A stretch of DNA of 64,000 nt from an uncultured Candidatus Saccharibacteria bacterium (GCA_964384035.1 CAYLIB010000007.1:18769-82768), one strand, 5' to 3'; counted from the first letter of the stretch, positions 17,515 through 63,060 are shown. Program-made: numbers and translations. The notes: a model not told the origin generated them from the sequence alone.

Positions 17515-19218
17515 ATGAGACAGAGTAGGTATTTTTTAAAAACAAGTAAAACTTTTTCCGCAGAGGATACGATTATATCGGCTCGTTTATTAAAACAGGC
17601 TGGTTTTATTCGTGAATCTGTAGCTGGTCGGTATTATTATCTTCCGTTGGGTATGAGGGTGTTAGAGAAGGTTATGGGTGTAGTGAGAGAAGAAATGGAT
17701 ATGAGCGGTGCTCAGGAAATGCTTTCTCCAATTTTGCATCCATTAGAATTATGGAAGGAGACTAACCGTACAAATACAGCAGGTTTTGAACTTATGCAGG
17801 TGGAGGATAGGCGAGGTGCGAAATTTGCTTTAGGGGGAACAGCTGAGGAGATGTTTGTGGACCTGGTTAGGAAGTTTACAATGAGCTATAAAGATCTTCC
17901 TTTTCATATATATCAATTCTCACCTAAATTTAGAGATGAATTGAGAGCAAGAGGTGGCTTGCTTCGTGTGAGGGAATTTATTATGAAAGATGGGTACTCT
18001 TTTCATAGAGGGGAGGAGGATTTTGGGGAGGAGTATGAGAAGATGAAAGAAGTTTATTCGAGAATTTTTAAAAGGTTGGGTCTTAGGACAGATACTGTAT
18101 TAGCTGATAACGGTTACATTGGTGGTGAATATTGTCATGAATTTATTGTCGAGTCGGAGAGTGGAGAAAGTAGGTATTTTGTAACAGAGAAAGGTACTGC
18201 TGCTCATGAGGACGTAGCAACTTTTGTAAGAAATCCAGCTAATAAAGATCAGGACATACTGCCAATTGAGGTGATTGAACAACCAGATTGGGTTAGAAAT
18301 ATGGAAGAAAATGAAAAGCACTACAGAAAGTCAAAAAATCATTTTTTAAAGAATGTTGTTTATAAAAATACAAAAAGTGGTCAAATTATTGTAGTTACCC
18401 TTACAGGTGATTTAGAAGTTAATAAGACTAAGTTAGAACAGGTTTTAAAGTCGGTTGGGCAGTTAGAGGATGCTACAGATGAGGATTTAGAAAAAATGGG
18501 AACAAAATCCGGTTATGTACATTCATGGGGTTATCCAAATGTATTTACTGTTGCTGACGTCGTTCTTTTGGAGGCCAGAAACTTGATAGGTGGGCAAAAA
18601 ACGGAAACTACGGATACGATAAATGTTAATTACGGTAGGGACTTTACTTGTGACATGATTGCGGATGTGGCAATGGCTTATCCTGGTGCTCGCGCTGAGG
18701 ATGGGGGTGTATATGAAGAAAAGAAAGGTATTGAAGTCGGTAATATCTTCCAGTTGGGGTATCACTACTCCAACCTTATGAAGGGTGCGGTTTTTACCGA
18801 TATAGATGGTGAGGAAAAACCATATTATATGGGTTGTTATGGTATCGGAATCGGGAGAACAATGGCTGCAGTTGTTGAGATGTGTAATGACGAAAGGGGT
18901 ATTATTTGGCCTGAAAGTATCGCTCCATTTAAAGTACATTTAGTATATGTTTCTGGTAAAGGTGAGGGTTTAAAGGAAAAAGCTGATCGAATTTATAAAG
19001 ATTTACTTGAAGCGGGGATAGAGGTTTTGTATGACGATAGGGAAGGGGTGACAGCAGGAGAAAAATTTGCTGACAGTGATTTGATAGGGATTCCTTATAG
19101 GGTAGTGGTCTCAACTAGAAGTCTTGAGAAGGATAGTGTGGAAATTAAGAGACGAGATGAGAAAGATGGTGTATTGGAACCTTTGAGTACGCTCGTCAGT
19201 TATTTCAGGAATAGTTAG
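17515..19218 (+). CDS. proS: Prolyl-tRNA synthetase (bacterial type)
   Basis: 567 aa; class II aaRS motifs; N-terminal YFLKTxK...ARLLxQAGFIR; C-terminal anticodon-binding domain. Confidence 0.9.
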   Translation: MRQSRYFLKTSKTFSAEDTIISARLLKQAGFIRESVAGRYYYLPLGMRVLEKVMGVVREEMDMSGAQEMLSPILHPLELWKETNRTNTAGFELMQVEDRRGAKFALGGTAEEMFVDLVRKFTMSYKDLPFHIYQFSPKFRDELRARGGLLRVREFIMKDGYSFHRGEEDFGEEYEKMKEVYSRIFKRLGLRTDTVLADNGYIGGEYCHEFIVESESGESRYFVTEKGTAAHEDVATFVRNPANKDQDILPIEVIEQPDWVRNMEENEKHYRKSKNHFLKNVVYKNTKSGQIIVVTLTGDLEVNKTKLEQVLKSVGQLEDATDEDLEKMGTKSGYVHSWGYPNVFTVADVVLLEARNLIGGQKTETTDTINVNYGRDFTCDMIADVAMAYPGARAEDGGVYEEKKGIEVGNIFQLGYHYSNLMKGAVFTDIDGEEKPYYMGCYGIGIGRTMAAVVEMCNDERGIIWPESIAPFKVHLVYVSGKGEGLKEKADRIYKDLLEAGIEVLYDDREGVTAGEKFADSDLIGIPYRVVVSTRSLEKDSVEIKRRDEKDGVLEPLSTLVSYFRNS

Positions 19219-25737: not shown

Positions 25738-27642
25738 ATGCAAGAACGACTTGAAGATATAATTCGAATAAGGAAAGATAAGATATTGGCTTTGGAAAAG
25801 CTCTCTATTGATGTTTATCCTTCGACAACTAACCGTACCCATAGTAATGCGGAAGTACTGGAGAAATTTTCAGACTTACAGGCTAGGGAATTGGTAATAG
25901 TGGGCAGGATAAGATCCTTTAGAGATATGGGAAAACTTATTTTTGTACACATCGATGACGGTACTGCTCGTGTGCAGGTATTGTTAAAAGATGAGCATGT
26001 TGGTGCTGAGAATTTGAAATTTTTTAAGAAACATTTTGATTTAGGAGATTTCGCGGAATTTGCAGGGACGTTATTTGAAACAAAGACAGGTGAGAAAACT
26101 TTGCAGGCTAAAGAATTTAAAATGCTTGCTAAAAGTATTTTACCGTTGCCAAGTGAGCATTTCGGGATAGAAGATACCGAACTAAAACTAAGAAAAAGGT
26201 ATCTGGATATTTTGTTAGATCCAGAGGTTAAGGAGATTTTTATTAAGAAAAACAAATTTTGGCAGGCTTTTAGAAATTTTTTGGAACAAAGAGGTTTTTT
26301 GGAAGTAGAAATGCCAATTTTAGAAGGTATACCTGGAGGCGCAGAAGCGGATCCGTTTATTACCCACCACAATGCACTTGATCGTGATTTTTATTTGCGA
26401 ATCTCACTAGAATTACCTTTGAAGAAAATGTTGGTGGCAGGGTATGAGAAAGTATTCGAAATTGGGAGGATTTTTAGAAATGAAGGTATCTCAACTGAAC
26501 ATTTGCAAGATTACACACAAATGGAGTTTTATTGGGCATATGGGGACTTTGAAGGGCTTCTGAAATTTTGGCAGGAAATGTATCAGTATGTAATAAAAGA
26601 GACTTTTGGGACATTGACTATAGCGTCTAGGGGGAAAACTGTGGACTGGAGTGGCGAGTGGCCAAGGGTTAGTTATGTGCAAGTATTTAAAGAGTATACA
26701 GGTTTAGATTTGCTTTCTTGTTCGGATGAGGACTTAAGGAATTATGCGGATTCAAATTCAATTGAGTATGAAGATTTTGCTCAAAGGGGTAGGCTAATAG
26801 ATGTAATTTTTAAAAAATTTAGAAAACAAATTCCTGGAGACAAGCCATTTTTCTTGATAGATCAACCTATTGAGCTAGAACCATTGGCTAAAAAAGATCC
26901 TAAGAATCCAAAGCTTGTTCAGAGGGCACAAGTAGTTGCTTATGGTACCGAATTGGGTAAAGGGTTTGGAGAGTTAAATGATCCAATAGATCAAAGACAG
27001 AGGTTTACTGAACAGGCTAAGTTAAGAGAAGCAGGTGATAGTGAAGCTCAAATGTTTGATGAAGGTTATGTGGAAGCCATGGAATATGGGATGCCGCCAG
27101 CCGCCGGATTTGGTGTAAGTGAAAGATTGTTTGCTTTGCTTATGGATAAATCTGTAAGAGAAACACAGATTTTTCCTCTGATGAAGGAAGAAGATTTAGG
27201 AAGAGTAGTGAAAAATGAGAAAGAAACACCTTTGGCTGTGGTAGTGGTTAATAATTCTTCTAAATTAGAAAAATGGCAAGAGTTAAATACAGTCGCGCAT
27301 CTAAATGCTGCTTATGGGGCAAGGATGGGTAAGAAATTGTTTTATTCCGAGTCTGCTCATTCTAAGGATGGCAAAGATGTAAAAATGAATACAAGTCATG
27401 CGATTATTATAAAGAGCGCTAATTCAGGAAGCGAGCTTGGTGAGCTTTTGGAAAAAGCAGTTGATTTAAATTTGCACACAGAGGTTTTTTCCAGAGAGAT
27501 GATTAATTCTAGTGATGATAAAAAAGTAATGAAGGAGATAGGTTCAAAAGAATTTAAAGATATTGAATTATTAGGAGTTTTGGTTTTTGGATCTAAGAAA
27601 AAAGTCTCAGAAATCACTTCTGGATTCTCATTATATTCTTAA
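25738..27642 (+). CDS. lysS: Lysyl-tRNA synthetase (class II) with a C-terminal extension of about 140 aa resembling the PTH2 peptidyl-tRNA hydrolase fold
   Basis: 634 aa versus about 500 typical; core FRNEGISTEHLQDYTQMEFYWAY and class II motif 3; the extension (AVVVVNN...NTVAHLNAAYG ... AIIIKSANSGSELGELLEKAVDLNLHTEVF ... LLGVLVFGS) matches Pth2 block order (VIAVR...AAQVAHAA ... VVVKVNSLEELLELYEKAKSLNLPVSLI ... ALGIGP). Confidence 0.85.
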   Translation: MQERLEDIIRIRKDKILALEKLSIDVYPSTTNRTHSNAEVLEKFSDLQARELVIVGRIRSFRDMGKLIFVHIDDGTARVQVLLKDEHVGAENLKFFKKHFDLGDFAEFAGTLFETKTGEKTLQAKEFKMLAKSILPLPSEHFGIEDTELKLRKRYLDILLDPEVKEIFIKKNKFWQAFRNFLEQRGFLEVEMPILEGIPGGAEADPFITHHNALDRDFYLRISLELPLKKMLVAGYEKVFEIGRIFRNEGISTEHLQDYTQMEFYWAYGDFEGLLKFWQEMYQYVIKETFGTLTIASRGKTVDWSGEWPRVSYVQVFKEYTGLDLLSCSDEDLRNYADSNSIEYEDFAQRGRLIDVIFKKFRKQIPGDKPFFLIDQPIELEPLAKKDPKNPKLVQRAQVVAYGTELGKGFGELNDPIDQRQRFTEQAKLREAGDSEAQMFDEGYVEAMEYGMPPAAGFGVSERLFALLMDKSVRETQIFPLMKEEDLGRVVKNEKETPLAVVVVNNSSKLEKWQELNTVAHLNAAYGARMGKKLFYSESAHSKDGKDVKMNTSHAIIIKSANSGSELGELLEKAVDLNLHTEVFSREMINSSDDKKVMKEIGSKEFKDIELLGVLVFGSKKKVSEITSGFSLYS

Positions 27643-57039: not shown

Positions 57040-58788
57040 TTACGGGTTTTTATTCTCTATTTCAGTTTTCAATTGTGCAGTAAAGTTGGATATTTCTTTT
57101 GTTCCAAGATCTTCGCCGGTTCTTGCTCTTACCGATAGGTTATTGTCTTGCTCTTCTTTTTCACCGACTATTATTTGATAAGGAATTTTTGACATTGAAG
57201 CTTCGCGGATTTTTTTGCCAACCGATTCACTTCGGTCATCTATCTCTATTCGGAGACTTGGTATGTTATCTTCAAGTTCTTTTTTTATTTTGTTAGCGTA
57301 GTCATTGAATTTGTCGGAAATGGGAAGAATGGCAACTTGAACAGGGGAGAGCCAGAGGGGGAAGTTCCCAGCAGAGTGCTCTATAAATATAGAAAGGAAT
57401 CTTTCTATAGAACCCATAATAGCGGCATGGATCATTACGACTTGCTCGTCTTTGCCTTCTTCGTTTATACAGTTTAAGTTAAAGCGCTGAGGCATATTCA
57501 TATCCATTTGTATGGTTGCGACCTGCCAGCGTCTGCCTATGGAGTCGTGTGCGAGGAAGTCTATTTTTGGTCCGTAAAAAGCGGCTTCACCGGGTACGAT
57601 TTCGGCGTCCGTTTTTCTTTCTTCAACAAGTTCTTTAAGTTGTGCTTCGGCGAATTCCCAGTTTTCACTTGTACCTAAGTATTTTTCTTTTTGTTCTGGG
57701 TCGTGGAAAGAAAGTCGGACTTCCAATTTGAACCCAAAGCTCGTGTAGAAACTCTCTATAATATCCCATACTGCTTCCATTTCCTGTTTTACTTGTGAGC
57801 TTCTGCAGAAAACGTGTGCATCGTCTTGAGCGAATGCTCGTACCCGGGAAAGTCCAGAAAGTTCACCTGTTTGCTCGTCTCTGTAGCAAACCGTGGTGTT
57901 GGCGTACCTTACGGGAAGTTGTTTATATGAATGCGGTTTTCTTGCGTAAATTTGGGTGTGATGAGGACAGTTCATCGGCTTCATTGCGAACTCGTGACCC
58001 TCTCTTGTGGTAATGCGAAATAGTTCGTCTTTAAATTTATCCCAGTGACCGCTGGTTTCATAGAGATCTTTTTTGGTGATGTGAGGGATTTCTACTTTTT
58101 CGTAACCCTTGGCTTTTCTGAGTGACCATACGTAGTCATCCAGTAAGCTTCTTACTAGAGTGCCTTTAGGTGTCCAAAGCGGGAGGCCAGGACCAACCAA
58201 TTCTGAGAAAGTGAAAAGGTCTAGGGCGGGGCCTAGTTTTTTATGGTCTCTTTTTTTTGCTTCCTCGAGCATTTTTATGTATTCATCTAATTCTGCTTTG
58301 GTTTCAAATGCTAATCCGTAAATACGAGTGAGCATCGGGTTTTCAGCATTGCCTCGCCAGTAAGCTCCGGTAATTTTATCTAGTTTCCAACTGCTGGGTA
58401 CTATGTCTTTGAAGTTATCAGTGTGGCCACCCTTGCAAAGGTCCCAGTAGTTACCGGATTTATAGAAACTTACGCTTTCACCGTTCTTTGTAAATTCGTT
58501 AATAAGTTCGTGCTTGTATGGATTATCTGGGTACTCTTTTTTGGCTTCTTCAGCTGTAAGTTCGTGTCTTTCAAATGTTGTCCAACTTTTAGATATTTCT
58601 CTCATTTTCTTCTCGATTCTTTCTAAATCTTTTTCGTTTATCGGTTCAGGGAATTCGAAGTCAAAATAAAATCCGTTGTCGATAGCTGGACCGATGGCGC
58701 GTTTGGTATTGGGCCATAACTCCATTACGGCTGCAGCAAGTAGGTGGGCCAGGGAGTGTCTTTTATGTTGGAGTATTTCGTTTTGCAT
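57040..58788 (-). CDS. thrS: Threonyl-tRNA synthetase lacking the N-terminal TGS (N1) domain
   Basis: 582 aa; starts at the editing-domain HSLAHLL...GPAIDNGFYFDF; class II catalytic and anticodon-binding domains. Confidence 0.9.
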   Translation of the reverse strand: MQNEILQHKRHSLAHLLAAAVMELWPNTKRAIGPAIDNGFYFDFEFPEPINEKDLERIEKKMREISKSWTTFERHELTAEEAKKEYPDNPYKHELINEFTKNGESVSFYKSGNYWDLCKGGHTDNFKDIVPSSWKLDKITGAYWRGNAENPMLTRIYGLAFETKAELDEYIKMLEEAKKRDHKKLGPALDLFTFSELVGPGLPLWTPKGTLVRSLLDDYVWSLRKAKGYEKVEIPHITKKDLYETSGHWDKFKDELFRITTREGHEFAMKPMNCPHHTQIYARKPHSYKQLPVRYANTTVCYRDEQTGELSGLSRVRAFAQDDAHVFCRSSQVKQEMEAVWDIIESFYTSFGFKLEVRLSFHDPEQKEKYLGTSENWEFAEAQLKELVEERKTDAEIVPGEAAFYGPKIDFLAHDSIGRRWQVATIQMDMNMPQRFNLNCINEEGKDEQVVMIHAAIMGSIERFLSIFIEHSAGNFPLWLSPVQVAILPISDKFNDYANKIKKELEDNIPSLRIEIDDRSESVGKKIREASMSKIPYQIIVGEKEEQDNNLSVRARTGEDLGTKEISNFTAQLKTEIENKNP

Positions 58789-58821
58789 AGTTTAATTTTA
58801 GAAGTTAATAAAAATTAAAAC

Positions 58822-59185
58822 CCAGAATTTATTTACCAAAAGTTTGGTAGATAAATTCTGGGGTCTAGTTGTTTGCCAGACGGTTCCAACCCAGATAACT
58901 ATTTTATTAAATTTGTAATCGCTCGCCGAGTGGTAGTCGGGTCTTTGTGATAGGTATATTAGAATATTAAAAGTTTGACCGAAGGAAGTCAAACAAGAGA
59001 AAAAGCCGGCCCGAAATATTTCGAGTCGGCTTTTCCTGTGATCACATTTATAGGTTAATGGTTACGCCAATTTGAGCGGCTGCTTGGGGCAAGCGGAAAT
59101 GCCTAATCTCAACTGACGCCGATTTTTCGAAAATGCCCCAGAGGAGTAGTAGTTGAACCAGGGGCTTTGGGTTCAATTGGCTACC
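58822..59185 (-). promoter_or_regulatory. T-box riboswitch leader of thrS (antiterminator/terminator pair; candidate Stem I with Thr ACU specifier). The 5' boundary is approximate.
   Basis: Minus-sense RNA. A1 UCUGGG (plus 58890-58895) pairs with CCCAGA (58857-58862). The 8-nt bulge UUGGAACC (58882-58889) is equivalent to the T-box UGGNACC. A2 is GUCUGG-CAAACAA-CUAGAC. A 19-bp terminator stem (58822-58861) plus a U-rich tract lies 33 nt before the thrS AUG, and its 5' strand includes CCCAGA. Candidate Stem I at 59130-59181: GAGGAG-[CGGUAGCCAA]-UUGAACC-loop-GGUUCAA-[CUACUA]-CUCCUC. Confidence 0.5.
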
Positions 59186-59595
59186 GCTCCTCTAGCAGGA
59201 GTCTTGCTTGACCGAATAGGGGGGGGCAGCAGACTCCGTAATCCTAGAACGTGTAAATCTTAGCGCGTTCTAGAGAAAATAGTTTATTTACCCAAAGACT
59301 TGCTATAGTACAAACTTACACTCTTCCATAGCAAGGAAACCTGTCTTTGGGTTGTTTGTGCAACCGGGATGCCTGCACTTGTGTGCGGGTTGCGCTTACC
59401 GAAGCTTTTTCGGCAAGTGGTTTCCTGGCAATAAAAAAAGAATTTTTTACTACTAGGAAACCACTTGTAAAACCTATTTTTTTAATGTGTTATACAGGGC
59501 TATTGGGAAACCTATTCAGTGAATCCACAGAAAAGGTTATGCCGTTCTAGCCCCATTATATTAAACTTTTTTTAAATTATGTCAAGGTTTATAGC

Positions 59596-62500
59596 CTATT
59601 TTTCCCCAACCATGCTAACTTCTTTTATTGCGGTTAATTGATCTATTAGATCCATAGAAATTGAAACTCTAGTGTGGGTTTTAATTTTTTTTATTCCTTC
59701 GTCGGTTGTGATATCTAATACAACCTCAGCGTTGCCAGGGAATTTGGTAAGTATTTCTTTTATAGAATTTAGAGTATCTTTGGTTCCGTTTTTGGAGATG
59801 TGGATATGGACTTGTTTTTCTTTTTCCATTTCGCTTAAAGCCATCTGGTAAATTTCATCACTGGGGAGGATCTTTATCGAATCTGCGATTATTTTAAGTT
59901 CCTCATCTTTGTCGTTAAGTTTTCCGGTTAACTCAATTACTCTGTCTACTTCGAGTATTGTTACAACTTGAGCCATTGTTTTTGGAAAAACTATGACTTC
60001 CATACTTCCGGATAAGTCTTCGAGAGTGAAGATTGCCATGGGGTCATTCTTTTTGGTCAACATTTTTTTCATTTTTGAAATCATGCCACCCAGATGGACA
60101 CTTGCCCCTAGAGGTGCATCCTGTAGTGCGTTTATGGAACCGAAATTGCTTAAAACTTTTTTATAATTTTTTAGAGGATGTGAAGTAACGTACATTCCCA
60201 GGTGTTCCTTTTCCCAGGTGAGTTTCTCTTGCTCGGATATTTCCCCTGAGGGTTCTAGTTTGAGCTTTCCAATTTGAAAAGATTTACCGAATAAAGAATT
60301 CTGTCCATCTGTTTTAATTTTAAAATGCTCTCTTAGAAAATCTAGGACTCGCTCTGTGTTGAAAATTAGGTTTCCTCTCTCGCCAAATCTATCTAATGCA
60401 CCTCCTTTTACCAACGCTTCGTATGATTTTTTATTTAAATTTTTGGTATGGCATTTGATTAGAAAATCTTCGAGAGTTTTAAATGGGACTTTTTCCTTTG
60501 TTTCTGATCTTAACTTAATAATTTGTTCTACGACATCGCTACCTAAGTTTTTTATAGCATTTAGACCAAAACGAATAGTGTGTTCATCTACTACTGTAAA
60601 ATCTCCGAAGGATTCATTTACGTCTGGTGGGAGCACTGTAATTTTTAAATTCTTACATTCTTCTACTGCGGCATAAATTTTATCTTCATTGCCACTTTCA
60701 CAGGTCATAACAGAAGCCATAAATTCAACAGGAAAATTAGCTTTCATGTAAGCAGTCTGATAAGAAACTACAGCGTAGCTTGCAGAATGGCTTTTATTGA
60801 AACCATATGCAGCAAAAGGTTCTATCCACGCCCATACTTCTTCCGCCTTATTTTTACTCCACCCTACGGTTTTTACACAACCATCTATAAATTTACCTCT
60901 CTCTTTCGCCATAACTTCCACGTCTTTTTTTCCTACTGCTTTTCTGAACTTATCTACTTCTTCCCAAGTGTAACCTGCGAGGTCATGGGCGATGGTTAAC
61001 AGGTCGTCTTGGTAAACTAAAATACCATAAGTTCTTTGGAGTATTTTTTCCAAAGAAGGGTCTAAATAAGTAATAAGATTAGGATCATGTTTTCTTGCTA
61101 TGAATTGCGGAATGAATTGGAGGGGTCCTGGACGATATAACGCAATCATGGCAGAAAGATCGAAAATATTGGAAGGTCTAAGTTCTTTTAAATAGCGGGT
61201 CATTCCACCTGAGCCAAGTTGAAAGACACCGAAGGTTAAGCCTTTTGAAAGTAATTCAAAGGTAGCTTTGTCTGGGTGGGGGAGATTATAGATATCTATT
61301 TTTTTTCCATGTCTCTTTTCTACTAAATTAACAGCAAGCTCTAGAATACTAAGGTTTCTAATCCCGAGTAAATCCATTTTAATCGCACCGATAGCGTTGC
61401 CTTTAGCGTTCACATCGAGCGAATACATATCGTATTGGGTAATCATCCTTTCTCCGTCAGGTTCTTTTTGGAGAGGAACTATGTCAGTAAGAGGAACCGG
61501 AGTAATGATAATCCCAGCGGCGTGGATAGAGGCGTGTCTGCAGCAACCTTCTAACCGCCTTGCGATGTCGATTATTTTGGTAGTTTCGGGATCTCTTTTA
61601 TAAACTTCTTTTAGCTCGGCCGACATTTCGATTGCTTTGTCTAGTGTCATATGGAAACCTTGTTTGCCGATTGGTATCATTTTGGCTATACGGTCGCATT
61701 TTCCGTATGCGACACCTAGTGCTCTACCAACATCTCTGACTGCTGCTCTAGCCATCATGGTTCCAAATGTAATAATTTGAGCAACTTTGTCCTTACCATA
61801 ACTTTCTGTAATGTATGCAATCGCCTCGTCTCTTTTTACGTCAGAAATATCGAGGTCAATATCGGGAGGGGTAGGGCGGTGCATGGTTAAAAAGCGTTCG
61901 AAAGGAAGCTCATAATATAGTGGGTCTACGTTGGTGATTTCGAGTATGTAACCGACTATGCTACCGGCTGCGGATCCCCTAGTGTTAGTGATTGCACCTA
62001 TTTGATGTGAACCATGAACAATATCTGCTACCATCAAGAAATATGGAGCGAAACCTTTTTTGCATATGATATCTAGTTCGTAATCGATTCTCGTAAGTAT
62101 TTCTTGGGGTATAGTTCCAGCTGCGCCATATTTGGCGAAAGATTTTTCGTGAACTGTATCAGTGAGATGTTCCTCCGCGCTTTTCCCTTCTGGGAGCCTA
62201 ACTTTAGGGAAGTATCTTTGATTTATTGGGATTTCAAGATTGCACATATCAGCAATCTTATTACTGTTCTCGATAGCTTCAGGGATATCTTTAAAAAGTT
62301 CTGTCATTTCCTGTGGTGACCTAAGTGACAGGTCGTGTTGACGCATGTCCAGTCTGTTTGGGTCGTTTACTGTTTTTCCTATTCCGATACAGACCATAAT
62401 GTCCTGAGCTTCTGCGTCTTCTTTATCTATATAGTGAGAGTCTTGAGTTGCGACAACGGGTATATTTTTTCTTTTGGCTAACTCGGCCATTGAATCAAAT

Positions 62501-63060
62501 ATTTTTGCCAACTCCGGATCGGGATTTGCGCTTGTGCGTTGCAGTTCTATATAAAAGTTTTCCTTACCAAAAATATTTAAATATTCTTCTAAGGCTTTTT
62601 CTCCTTCTTTTGTGCTTGCCTGCAATTTCCTACCTATTTCACCTCTTGGGCAACCTGAAAGAGCAATAATTCCCTCGTGGTATTTTTGTAGTAACTCTTT
62701 GTCTACTCTGGGTTTATAGTAAAAACCCTCGGTGTGTGAGAGAGTGGCAAGCATGAGTAGGTTTTGATAACCTTCATAATTTTTGGCTAGTAGGGTTAGG
62801 TGATAGTAGTCGCTATCGATTTTTCCTTCTTTGTCGAATCGGGTGCGAGGGGCCACATAACTTTCCATTCCAATTATTGGTTTTATGCCTGCCTCGTGGC
62901 ATAAGTTGTAAAATTCGACAGCTCCATAAAGTACACCGTGGTCTGTTATGCTGAGTGCGGTCATGCCAAGGTTTTTTGCTTTTTCCACTAAGGGTTCAGG
63001 TTTGCTCAGGCCATCAAGTAATGAGTAGTGGGTGTGACAATGTAAATGAGTGAAATTCAT
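59596..63060 (-). CDS. dnaE: DNA polymerase III alpha subunit
   Basis: 1154 aa; N-terminal PHP domain HLHCHTHYSLLDG; polymerase core; OB fold. Confidence 0.9.
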   Translation of the reverse strand: MNFTHLHCHTHYSLLDGLSKPEPLVEKAKNLGMTALSITDHGVLYGAVEFYNLCHEAGIKPIIGMESYVAPRTRFDKEGKIDSDYYHLTLLAKNYEGYQNLLMLATLSHTEGFYYKPRVDKELLQKYHEGIIALSGCPRGEIGRKLQASTKEGEKALEEYLNIFGKENFYIELQRTSANPDPELAKIFDSMAELAKRKNIPVVATQDSHYIDKEDAEAQDIMVCIGIGKTVNDPNRLDMRQHDLSLRSPQEMTELFKDIPEAIENSNKIADMCNLEIPINQRYFPKVRLPEGKSAEEHLTDTVHEKSFAKYGAAGTIPQEILTRIDYELDIICKKGFAPYFLMVADIVHGSHQIGAITNTRGSAAGSIVGYILEITNVDPLYYELPFERFLTMHRPTPPDIDLDISDVKRDEAIAYITESYGKDKVAQIITFGTMMARAAVRDVGRALGVAYGKCDRIAKMIPIGKQGFHMTLDKAIEMSAELKEVYKRDPETTKIIDIARRLEGCCRHASIHAAGIIITPVPLTDIVPLQKEPDGERMITQYDMYSLDVNAKGNAIGAIKMDLLGIRNLSILELAVNLVEKRHGKKIDIYNLPHPDKATFELLSKGLTFGVFQLGSGGMTRYLKELRPSNIFDLSAMIALYRPGPLQFIPQFIARKHDPNLITYLDPSLEKILQRTYGILVYQDDLLTIAHDLAGYTWEEVDKFRKAVGKKDVEVMAKERGKFIDGCVKTVGWSKNKAEEVWAWIEPFAAYGFNKSHSASYAVVSYQTAYMKANFPVEFMASVMTCESGNEDKIYAAVEECKNLKITVLPPDVNESFGDFTVVDEHTIRFGLNAIKNLGSDVVEQIIKLRSETKEKVPFKTLEDFLIKCHTKNLNKKSYEALVKGGALDRFGERGNLIFNTERVLDFLREHFKIKTDGQNSLFGKSFQIGKLKLEPSGEISEQEKLTWEKEHLGMYVTSHPLKNYKKVLSNFGSINALQDAPLGASVHLGGMISKMKKMLTKKNDPMAIFTLEDLSGSMEVIVFPKTMAQVVTILEVDRVIELTGKLNDKDEELKIIADSIKILPSDEIYQMALSEMEKEKQVHIHISKNGTKDTLNSIKEILTKFPGNAEVVLDITTDEGIKKIKTHTRVSISMDLIDQLTAIKEVSMVGEK

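Follow-up and report, generated by a model that had tools for sequence, protein, structure and literature searches.

Transcriptional T-box riboswitches generally require a distal platform that binds the tRNA elbow, leaders with a truncated Stem I depend on an essential Stem II domain, and the Stem III hairpin with its purines is an integral part of the discriminator (PMC7583486). The aminoacyl group is described as being sensed mainly by a G.U wobble at the base of helix A2. The TBDB collection was made with the Rfam model RF00230 and a class II model trained on Actinobacteria (PMC7778990). In a literature search, no report of T-boxes or other riboswitches in CPR, Patescibacteria, Parcubacteria or Saccharibacteria was found, which is not proof that there is none.

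Here we describe the leader of a threonyl-tRNA synthetase gene (thrS) on the minus strand of a 64,000-nucleotide stretch of DNA from an uncultured Candidatus Saccharibacteria bacterium (GCA_964384035.1, CAYLIB010000007.1:18769-82768; hereafter the window, with positions counted from its first nucleotide). A first-pass annotation had proposed a T-box-type, tRNA-sensing attenuator in front of this gene, and the proposal holds in its main point: thrS is probably under the control of a reduced T-box riboswitch acting by transcription attenuation. Judged from comparative sequence analysis, it is most likely a functional attenuator that senses tRNA-Thr(GGU).

Sequence context of the thrS leader

The thrS gene, with its start at 58788, is separated from dnaE (59596-63060, minus strand) by a gap of 807 nt, and both genes were confirmed with Pfam. 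The ThrS relatives of the window are found in Patescibacteria/CPR, in MAGs of the Parcubacteria/Paceibacterota type. The nearest, at 90% ThrS identity, is locus L001, which is collinear with the window at 87% nucleotide identity. A metagenome scan for closer relatives yielded ThrS identities of at most 71%, so that covariation of this exact leader variant can be read only from L001, the one close relative that has it in common with the window.

The dnaE-thrS gap consists of three parts, namely a long hairpin on the dnaE side (59474-59409), a GC-rich structured block and the short thrS leader. The GC-rich block is strongly structured (z = -5.3) and ends in an intrinsic terminator of its own (~59039-58996). 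Between this block and the thrS leader sits a promoter-like site, TTGACT-17-TAATAT (Table 1), with -35 and -10 hexamers identical in the window and L001 and four substitutions in the spacer; from this site, transcription of the leader is predicted to start at ~58957.

The first-pass annotation had assigned the span 58822-59185 to the leader and had placed an ACU specifier, within a Stem I, about 270 nt upstream of the antiterminator. The string CUACUA is indeed present (59152-59147, ~262 nt from the antiterminator bulge) and lies on the 3' side of a hairpin, but no internal loop exposes it: all of CUACU is taken up in pairs with GGUAG (59185-59181), and L001, with CUACCG at this place, conserves the helix. 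It belongs to a separate, independently terminated RNA, with both the intrinsic terminator and the conserved promoter-like site standing between it and the T-box. The match to the family model described below begins at 58958, and the upstream block recurs only in L001, whereas a proximal hairpin with ACC is found in dozens of thrS leaders. A long T-box with Stem I and an ACU specifier at 59140-59193 was rejected on these grounds and may be set aside as refuted; the predicted specifier is instead ACC followed by A (58934-58931) in a miniature, K-turn-based Stem I. The span first assigned was ~230 nt too long at its 5' end, and at its 3' end it stopped before the U-tract.

The upstream region constitutes a candidate structured non-coding RNA of ~550 nt (58996-59560, minus strand) between dnaE and thrS, with its own promoter-like TTGACA-16-TAATAT (59585-59558), which is conserved in L001, and the terminator at ~59039-58996. 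In comparison with L001 (79% identity), 0 of its 106 predicted pairs are broken, 3 are changed on both sides and 8 by wobble, and the indels are not multiples of three. The candidate RNA has no Rfam match, and nhmmer over the fetched loci finds L001 only. The hairpin at 59409-59474 inside it (both strands) has a stem of ~25 bp and a U/A-rich loop, is conserved in L001, and in Rfam yields only spurious miRNA-like matches.

Elsewhere in the 64-kb window, two further synthetase genes are present, proS and a class IIb Asp/Asn/Lys-type gene with a C-terminal DUF2000 fusion (17515-19218 and 25738-27642, both on the plus strand). A 613-nt intergenic gap precedes the class IIb gene, and neither gene has a T-box-like leader. 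No tRNA genes are present in the window, and none of the Rfam families scores at or above its gathering threshold there.

Structure of the leader

The whole element comprises ~100 nt, of which ~95 nt form the sensing domain; its parts are listed in Table 1. The A1/bulge/A2/A1' geometry and the competing terminator, as first proposed, can be read directly from the minus strand: A1' doubles as the 5' end of the terminator stem, and the antiterminator and the intrinsic terminator are thus mutually exclusive, as in T-boxes of the transcriptional class. A bulge of the UGGNACC type, with one extra nucleotide at its 5' end, separates A1 from A2. The A2 pair next to the bulge, G58881-C58863, is G-C rather than the G.U wobble; in the family alignment described below, this pair is G-C in 11 leaders, G.U in 6 and A-U in 1. 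The terminator had been annotated as a 19-bp hairpin. The hairpin is confirmed, but it is not a clean 19-bp stem, having 18 pairs and one internal C.A mismatch.

Table 1. Positions of the thrS leader elements in the window. Components are listed beneath the feature to which they belong, in the direction of transcription.
Feature	Position	Strand	Sequence or description	Basis
thrS	57040..58788	-	threonyl-tRNA synthetase, regulated gene	Pfam tRNA-synt_2b, HGTP_anticodon, tRNA_SAD
Promoter-like site of the thrS leader	58964..58992	-	-35 TTGACT 58992-58987, 17-nt spacer, -10 TAATAT 58969-58964	consensus scan, 9/12 matches
Ultrashort Stem I on K-turn	58918..58951	-		same module in 12 subfamily leaders; R1 alignment, high posterior probability
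K-turn C-stem	58951-58947 with 58922-58918	-	AUCAC with GCGAU	
K-turn 3-nt bulge	58946-58944	-	AAA	
Tandem G.A pairs	58943-58942 with 58924-58923	-	GA with GA	
3b.3n position	58941/58925	-	C.C	
Stem I 4-bp stem	58940-58937 with 58929-58926	-	CCGA/UCGG	
Specifier loop	58930..58936	-	CUACCAC, 7-nt terminal loop; U 58935, codon ACC 58934-58932, conserved purine A 58931	ACCA invariant in aligned leaders; identical in L001
Linker	58896..58917	-	AU-rich, single-stranded, 22 nt, with purine string AAUAAAAUAG; without Stem III	truncated-RNA fold: no stable structure
Antiterminator (discriminator core)	58857..58895	-	A1 UCUGGG/CCCAGA, 8-nt bulge U+UGGAACC, A2 GUCUGG/CUAGAC, loop CAAACAA	sequence; part of R1 match
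A1	58895-58890	-	UCUGGG	read from sequence
Bulge	58889-58882	-	UUGGAACC	
A2, 5' strand	58881-58876	-	GUCUGG	
A2 loop	58875-58869	-	CAAACAA	
A2, 3' strand	58868-58863	-	CUAGAC	
A1'	58862-58857	-	CCCAGA	
Intrinsic terminator	58806..58862	-	hairpin and U-rich tract	sequence, folding, relatives
Terminator hairpin	58862-58821	-	CCCAGAAUUUAU(C)UACCAA-ACUU-UUGGUA(A)AUAAAUUCUGGG	
U-rich tract	58820-58806	-	UUUUAAUUUUUAUUA	

Both conformers were folded, with energies of -13.7 kcal/mol for the antiterminator, -23.2 kcal/mol for the terminator and -29.2 kcal/mol for A2 together with the terminator, the terminator state being ~15 kcal/mol more stable than the antiterminator. For an RNA truncated at A1', the minimum-free-energy fold consists of the specifier hairpin and the antiterminator. 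On the strength of these folds, the energetics should fit a switch with termination by default and a co-transcriptional window for the antiterminator. In the full-length minimum-free-energy fold, CCA of the specifier and the 3' strand of its stem (58926-58933) pair with the 5' strand of A1 and UGG of the bulge (58886-58895, minus strand); the Thr specifier ACC-A resembles the NCCA end of a tRNA. In the terminated state, this pairing might sequester both sensing sites.

The specifier hairpin, CCGA-CUACCAC-UCGG (58940-58926), stands 35 nt upstream of A1 and is the same in L001; on its own it is weak (-3.0 kcal/mol). In layout its loop resembles an anticodon loop, U preceding the triplet and a purine following it, and, as expected of a T-box, the codon that it carries matches the regulated gene and has the conserved purine behind it (ACC and A in front of thrS). 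ACCA is invariant in 19 of 19 family-aligned leaders and in 12 of 12 leaders with the K-turn module, and the flanking stem covaries. The base of Stem I is a K-turn (GA motif), likewise a feature of T-boxes, with one A.C mismatch in the C-stem of the window.

The variant architecture that had been suspected for this reduced-genome lineage is borne out. The element has no long Stem I with a distal bulge/apical-loop platform (interdigitated T-loops) and no internal-loop S-turn specifier; Stem I is 4 bp followed by a 7-nt loop, and it contains no sequence that could form a distal platform. Stem II is absent, with only the 22-nt AU-rich linker between Stem I and A1. The Stem III hairpin with flanking purines (5'-RRRxG-Stem III-AA-3') is likewise absent, and only the purine string is left of it.

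The strict conservation of a consensus K-turn at the base of Stem I could also be read as the mark of a protein site. An L7Ae-family K-turn binder, or ThrRS itself, would then bind the mini Stem I, either replacing the tRNA or as a requirement for tRNA binding, and a bound protein could possibly act as a helper that compensates for the missing RNA modules; E. coli ThrRS autoregulates through a leader hairpin. The loop, however, has the codon ACC and not an anticodon-like GGU or CGU, and so does not mimic the tRNA-Thr anticodon arm, and pairing with the 3' end of a tRNA accounts best for the conserved UGGA bulge and the A1/A2 geometry. Protein control is therefore very unlikely, and mimicry of the ThrRS operator was rejected, because the loop carries a codon instead of an anticodon; it is located ~140 nt upstream of the start codon.

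Homology searches and related leaders

A total of 160 thrS loci were gathered from genomes and metagenomes, 154 of which were usable for a survey of leaders. A near-canonical T-box sequence, e.g. GGAAGCUCGGUGGAACCGCG, was found in ~30 of these 154, 90-250 nt upstream of thrS; most of these loci have a small hairpin 42-117 nt further upstream, with a near-invariant loop YUACCAM and a stem whose sequence is free to vary. An alignment of 19 Patescibacteria thrS leaders, from which the window and L001 were left out, backs five helices, namely P1 as the closing helix, the hairpin with the specifier, Stem III, A1 and A2. In these helices 90.9% of cells are paired, compared with 33-45% in slid controls, both sides change in 23 of the 25 pairs, and the observed values were reached in 0 of 500 shuffles. 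A1, A2 and Stem III covary across the alignment, which for A1 and A2 upholds the pairing first read from the window.

A covariance model (R1) was built from the 19-leader alignment. When applied to both strands of the 64-kb window, it gave a single match, at 58958-58856 on the minus strand, with 40.3 bits and E ~3e-9, spanning the full model apart from deletions of the middle domain and Stem III. R1 also matches 44 of the 160 Patescibacteria thrS loci, in every case on the coding strand at a distance of 69-812 nt upstream of the gene, and across ~1.08 Mb no off-target match occurs at E<1. The bare motif TGGNACC is not enriched in the window (18 observed against 18.05 expected), and GGNTGGNACC is so only weakly (3 against 0.8); since TGGNACC by itself is at chance level, the significance of the element derives from the covariance-model match and the comparative data.

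The first-pass annotation had let its assignment depend on a match to RF00230. In the window there is none at the gathering score, and over 58700-59650, which includes the leader, none even at E<=10, where only spurious miRNA-like hairpin matches are returned. The absence of a match is a poor criterion here, because the related leaders score below the threshold as well: at its gathering score of 93 bits, RF00230 misses all related Patescibacteria leaders, and in permissive mode it reaches sub-threshold scores of only 30-44 bits on four, namely L028 (43.8 bits, E 2e-6), L018 (33.2), L055 (31.6) and L015 (29.8), with E from 2e-6 to 1e-2 across the four. In its RF00230 alignment, L018 has a long Stem I of near-canonical form that includes a K-turn, an AG-type bulge, a distal loop and an ACCA specifier. 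As L028, L055 and L015 are seed members of R1 and L018 is matched by it, homology to accepted T-boxes is established by a chain, in which R1 matches the window and RF00230 matches R1 members; by this comparison, the element of the window is a T-box homologue.

The Patescibacteria thrS leaders thus form a graded series, comprising near-canonical leaders (L018, L070, L015), a majority class and a K-turn subfamily. In the majority class (L055, L050, L047, L057, L061, L101, L141, L152, L122, L046, L028), a covarying P1 closes a three-way junction, unlike the classical Stem I/Stem II arrangement; two hairpins, the one with the specifier and another that is variable, make up the junction, CCUAAUC is conserved on the 3' side, and Stem III follows.

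The K-turn subfamily consists of L002, L004, L036, L013, L014, L073, L033, L027, L054, L107, L049, L024 and the window. Its Stem I is organized as C-stem / 3-nt bulge / GA / short stem / CUACCAA / short stem / GA / C-stem and corresponds to the simple K-turn consensus, with a variable, non-Watson-Crick 3b.3n position. In the K-turn module of 12 leaders, 90% of cells are paired compared with 20-41% in slid controls, both GA dinucleotides are invariant, and the C-stem covaries. Downstream of the module, the relatives continue as AAUAAAAAG-[Stem III]-AGUA-CUGGG-N-[U/C]GGAA[C/U]C-GUCU...AGAC-CCCAGA and the window as AAUAAAAUAG-UUAU-CUGGG-U-UGGAACC-GUCU...AGAC-CCCAGA, with Stem III cleanly missing and the purine string retained. 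In each of the 14 subfamily leaders examined, a long hairpin starts from A1' CCCCAGA and leads into a U-tract, the hairpin interiors being unrelated in sequence. Stem III is also missing in L024/L098 and L061/L135/L101 (possibly in L070, too), so that the window is not alone in having lost it.

Several further features of these loci were noted. The bulge reads A-CGGAAUC (or CGGAACC or CGGAAAC) instead of UGGNACC in L004, L036, L013, L014, L073, L033, L011 and L027, and also in L002, L054 and L049; bulges of the CGGAAUC type place C opposite A76 of the tRNA and have an altered ACC trinucleotide, both positions being near-invariant in known T-boxes. In L002 (2537-2893), L004 (2572-2952) and L049 (2248-2958), the T-box terminator is separated from thrS by an ORF of 118-236 aa, so that the leader would govern a two-gene unit. 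Finally, some MAGs with a Patescibacteria-type thrS are titled Gammaproteobacteria, Pseudomonadales or Bdellovibrionales (L016, L019, L022, L034, L037, L041, L043, L048, L053, L070); these titles are probably automatic mislabels.

Conservation and selection

Between the window and L001, identity reaches 93.1% in the T-box segment (58958-58857) and 92% in the terminator's 3' half, compared with 58% at the third codon positions of thrS and 76% at those of dnaE. The seven differences in the T-box segment are located in the 5' flank, at K-turn bulge position L1, in the linker, in the A2 loop and in the outermost A1 pair, with zero differences in the codon loop, the G.A pairs, the bulge and A2. The leader sequence is identical in four independent assemblies, and strain-level contigs, in which it is identical as well, add no variation. 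The higher identity of the leader than of the third positions, together with its recovery in four assemblies, points to purifying selection on the reduced element and argues against an assembly artefact.

These data also bear on whether the element is a decaying relic, in which platform and Stem II were lost earlier and Stem III later, and in which tRNA sensing has been lost, leaving either a leaky constitutive attenuator or readthrough set by NTP levels or polymerase pausing. Such a reading would accommodate the weak specifier hairpin, a terminator much more stable than the antiterminator, and the G-C in place of G.U at the base of A2. A relic would not, however, preserve the specifier and UGGAACC, and the selective sparing of codon loop, G.A pairs, bulge and A2 in an otherwise diverging locus speaks against decay, as do the intact T-box cores of the other leaders that lack Stem III and the cost of an unregulated strong terminator 20 nt before an essential gene. 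We therefore consider a relic rather unlikely and retain a functional, tRNA-Thr-sensing attenuator as the preferred reading.

Proposed mechanism

According to this reading, transcription would begin near 58957, and the nascent RNA would fold the mini Stem I, i.e. the K-turn, the 4-bp stem and the loop CUACCAC, which would present the Thr codon ACC in the way that an anticodon loop presents its triplet. The anticodon of uncharged tRNA-Thr(GGU) would pair with ACC, and its predicted 3' end, UCCA, with UGGA of the bulge, stabilising the antiterminator (A1 and A2) until RNA polymerase has passed. With charged tRNA, or with none, A1' would be taken by the more stable terminator, and transcription would end ~20 nt before the thrS start codon.

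The pairing of two complementary anticodon loops is unusually stable for three base pairs. The proposed codon-anticodon contact would approximate such a complex and could partly offset the missing Stem II and platform, with the K-turn directing the linker and discriminator to the acceptor end of the tRNA. The cognate tRNA is predicted to have the anticodon GGU and the discriminator base U73; no tRNA-Thr gene was found in the window, within ~9 kb past each of its ends (on contigs with identical proteins), or in 167 loci.

Going one step further, we lean towards regarding the element as a working, natural minimal transcriptional T-box (~95 nt) that would read both identity and charging of tRNA-Thr without platform, Stem II and Stem III, and as one end of an unreported T-box radiation in Patescibacteria that Rfam does not detect. 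T-box control may then be possible with far fewer parts than the textbook examples suggest. A conserved natural element without these three modules would provide a test case for the minimum RNA needed for tRNA recognition and charge sensing, and might hint at a helper factor still to be discovered. More generally, predicted tRNA-sensing leaders are common before thrS in Patescibacteria, where gene regulation has hardly been studied; as these leaders fall below the Rfam detection threshold, riboswitch censuses undercount them.

Comparison with known systems

With the classical transcriptional T-boxes (RF00230; e.g. Bacillus subtilis tyrS, thrS and glyQS), the element shares the GGGU(U)GGAACCG bulge between A1 and A2, the A1' strand common to antiterminator and terminator, a codon that matches the synthetase (ACC for Thr, then A), the K-turn at the base of Stem I, and the position directly upstream of an aminoacyl-tRNA synthetase gene. 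Unlike them, it has no long Stem I, distal platform or internal specifier loop with S-turn, the codon being placed in a 7-nt terminal loop, and it has neither Stem II or IIA/B nor Stem III; its bulge is 8 nt long, and the base pair of A2 is G-C and not G.U.

The glyQS leader, regarded as the simplest natural T-box, resembles the element in having no Stem II domain and a short linker between Stem I and the discriminator, but it keeps a long Stem I with platform as well as Stem III, in a sensing domain of ~180 nt compared with ~95 nt here. That glyQS can dispense with Stem II has been put down to the strength of its codon-anticodon pairing, GGC/GCC; in the element, the predicted pairing is ACC/GGU.

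As summarized in PMC7583486, the translational 'class II' T-boxes of actinobacterial ileS (Sherwood et al. 2015) are similar in their truncated, K-turn-based Stem I without elbow platform and in a codon near the 5' end. By the same summary, they differ from the element in their Stem II S-turn, IIA/B pseudoknot and Shine-Dalgarno sequestrator, none of which it has; it ends in a terminator with U-tract. Unlike the E. coli-type thrS operator, the element has no anticodon-like loop beside the ribosome-binding site.

The other Patescibacteria thrS leaders of the R1 family are direct homologues. Common to the element and their K-turn subfamily (L002, L004, L033, L073, L107 and others) are Stem I, the purine string, a bulge of 8 nt, the GUCU...AGAC helix A2 and an A1' of the CCCCAGA type. 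It differs from most of its Patescibacteria relatives, which keep Stem III, and its bulge has the canonical UGGAACC, in contrast to the CGGAAUC of many subfamily members.
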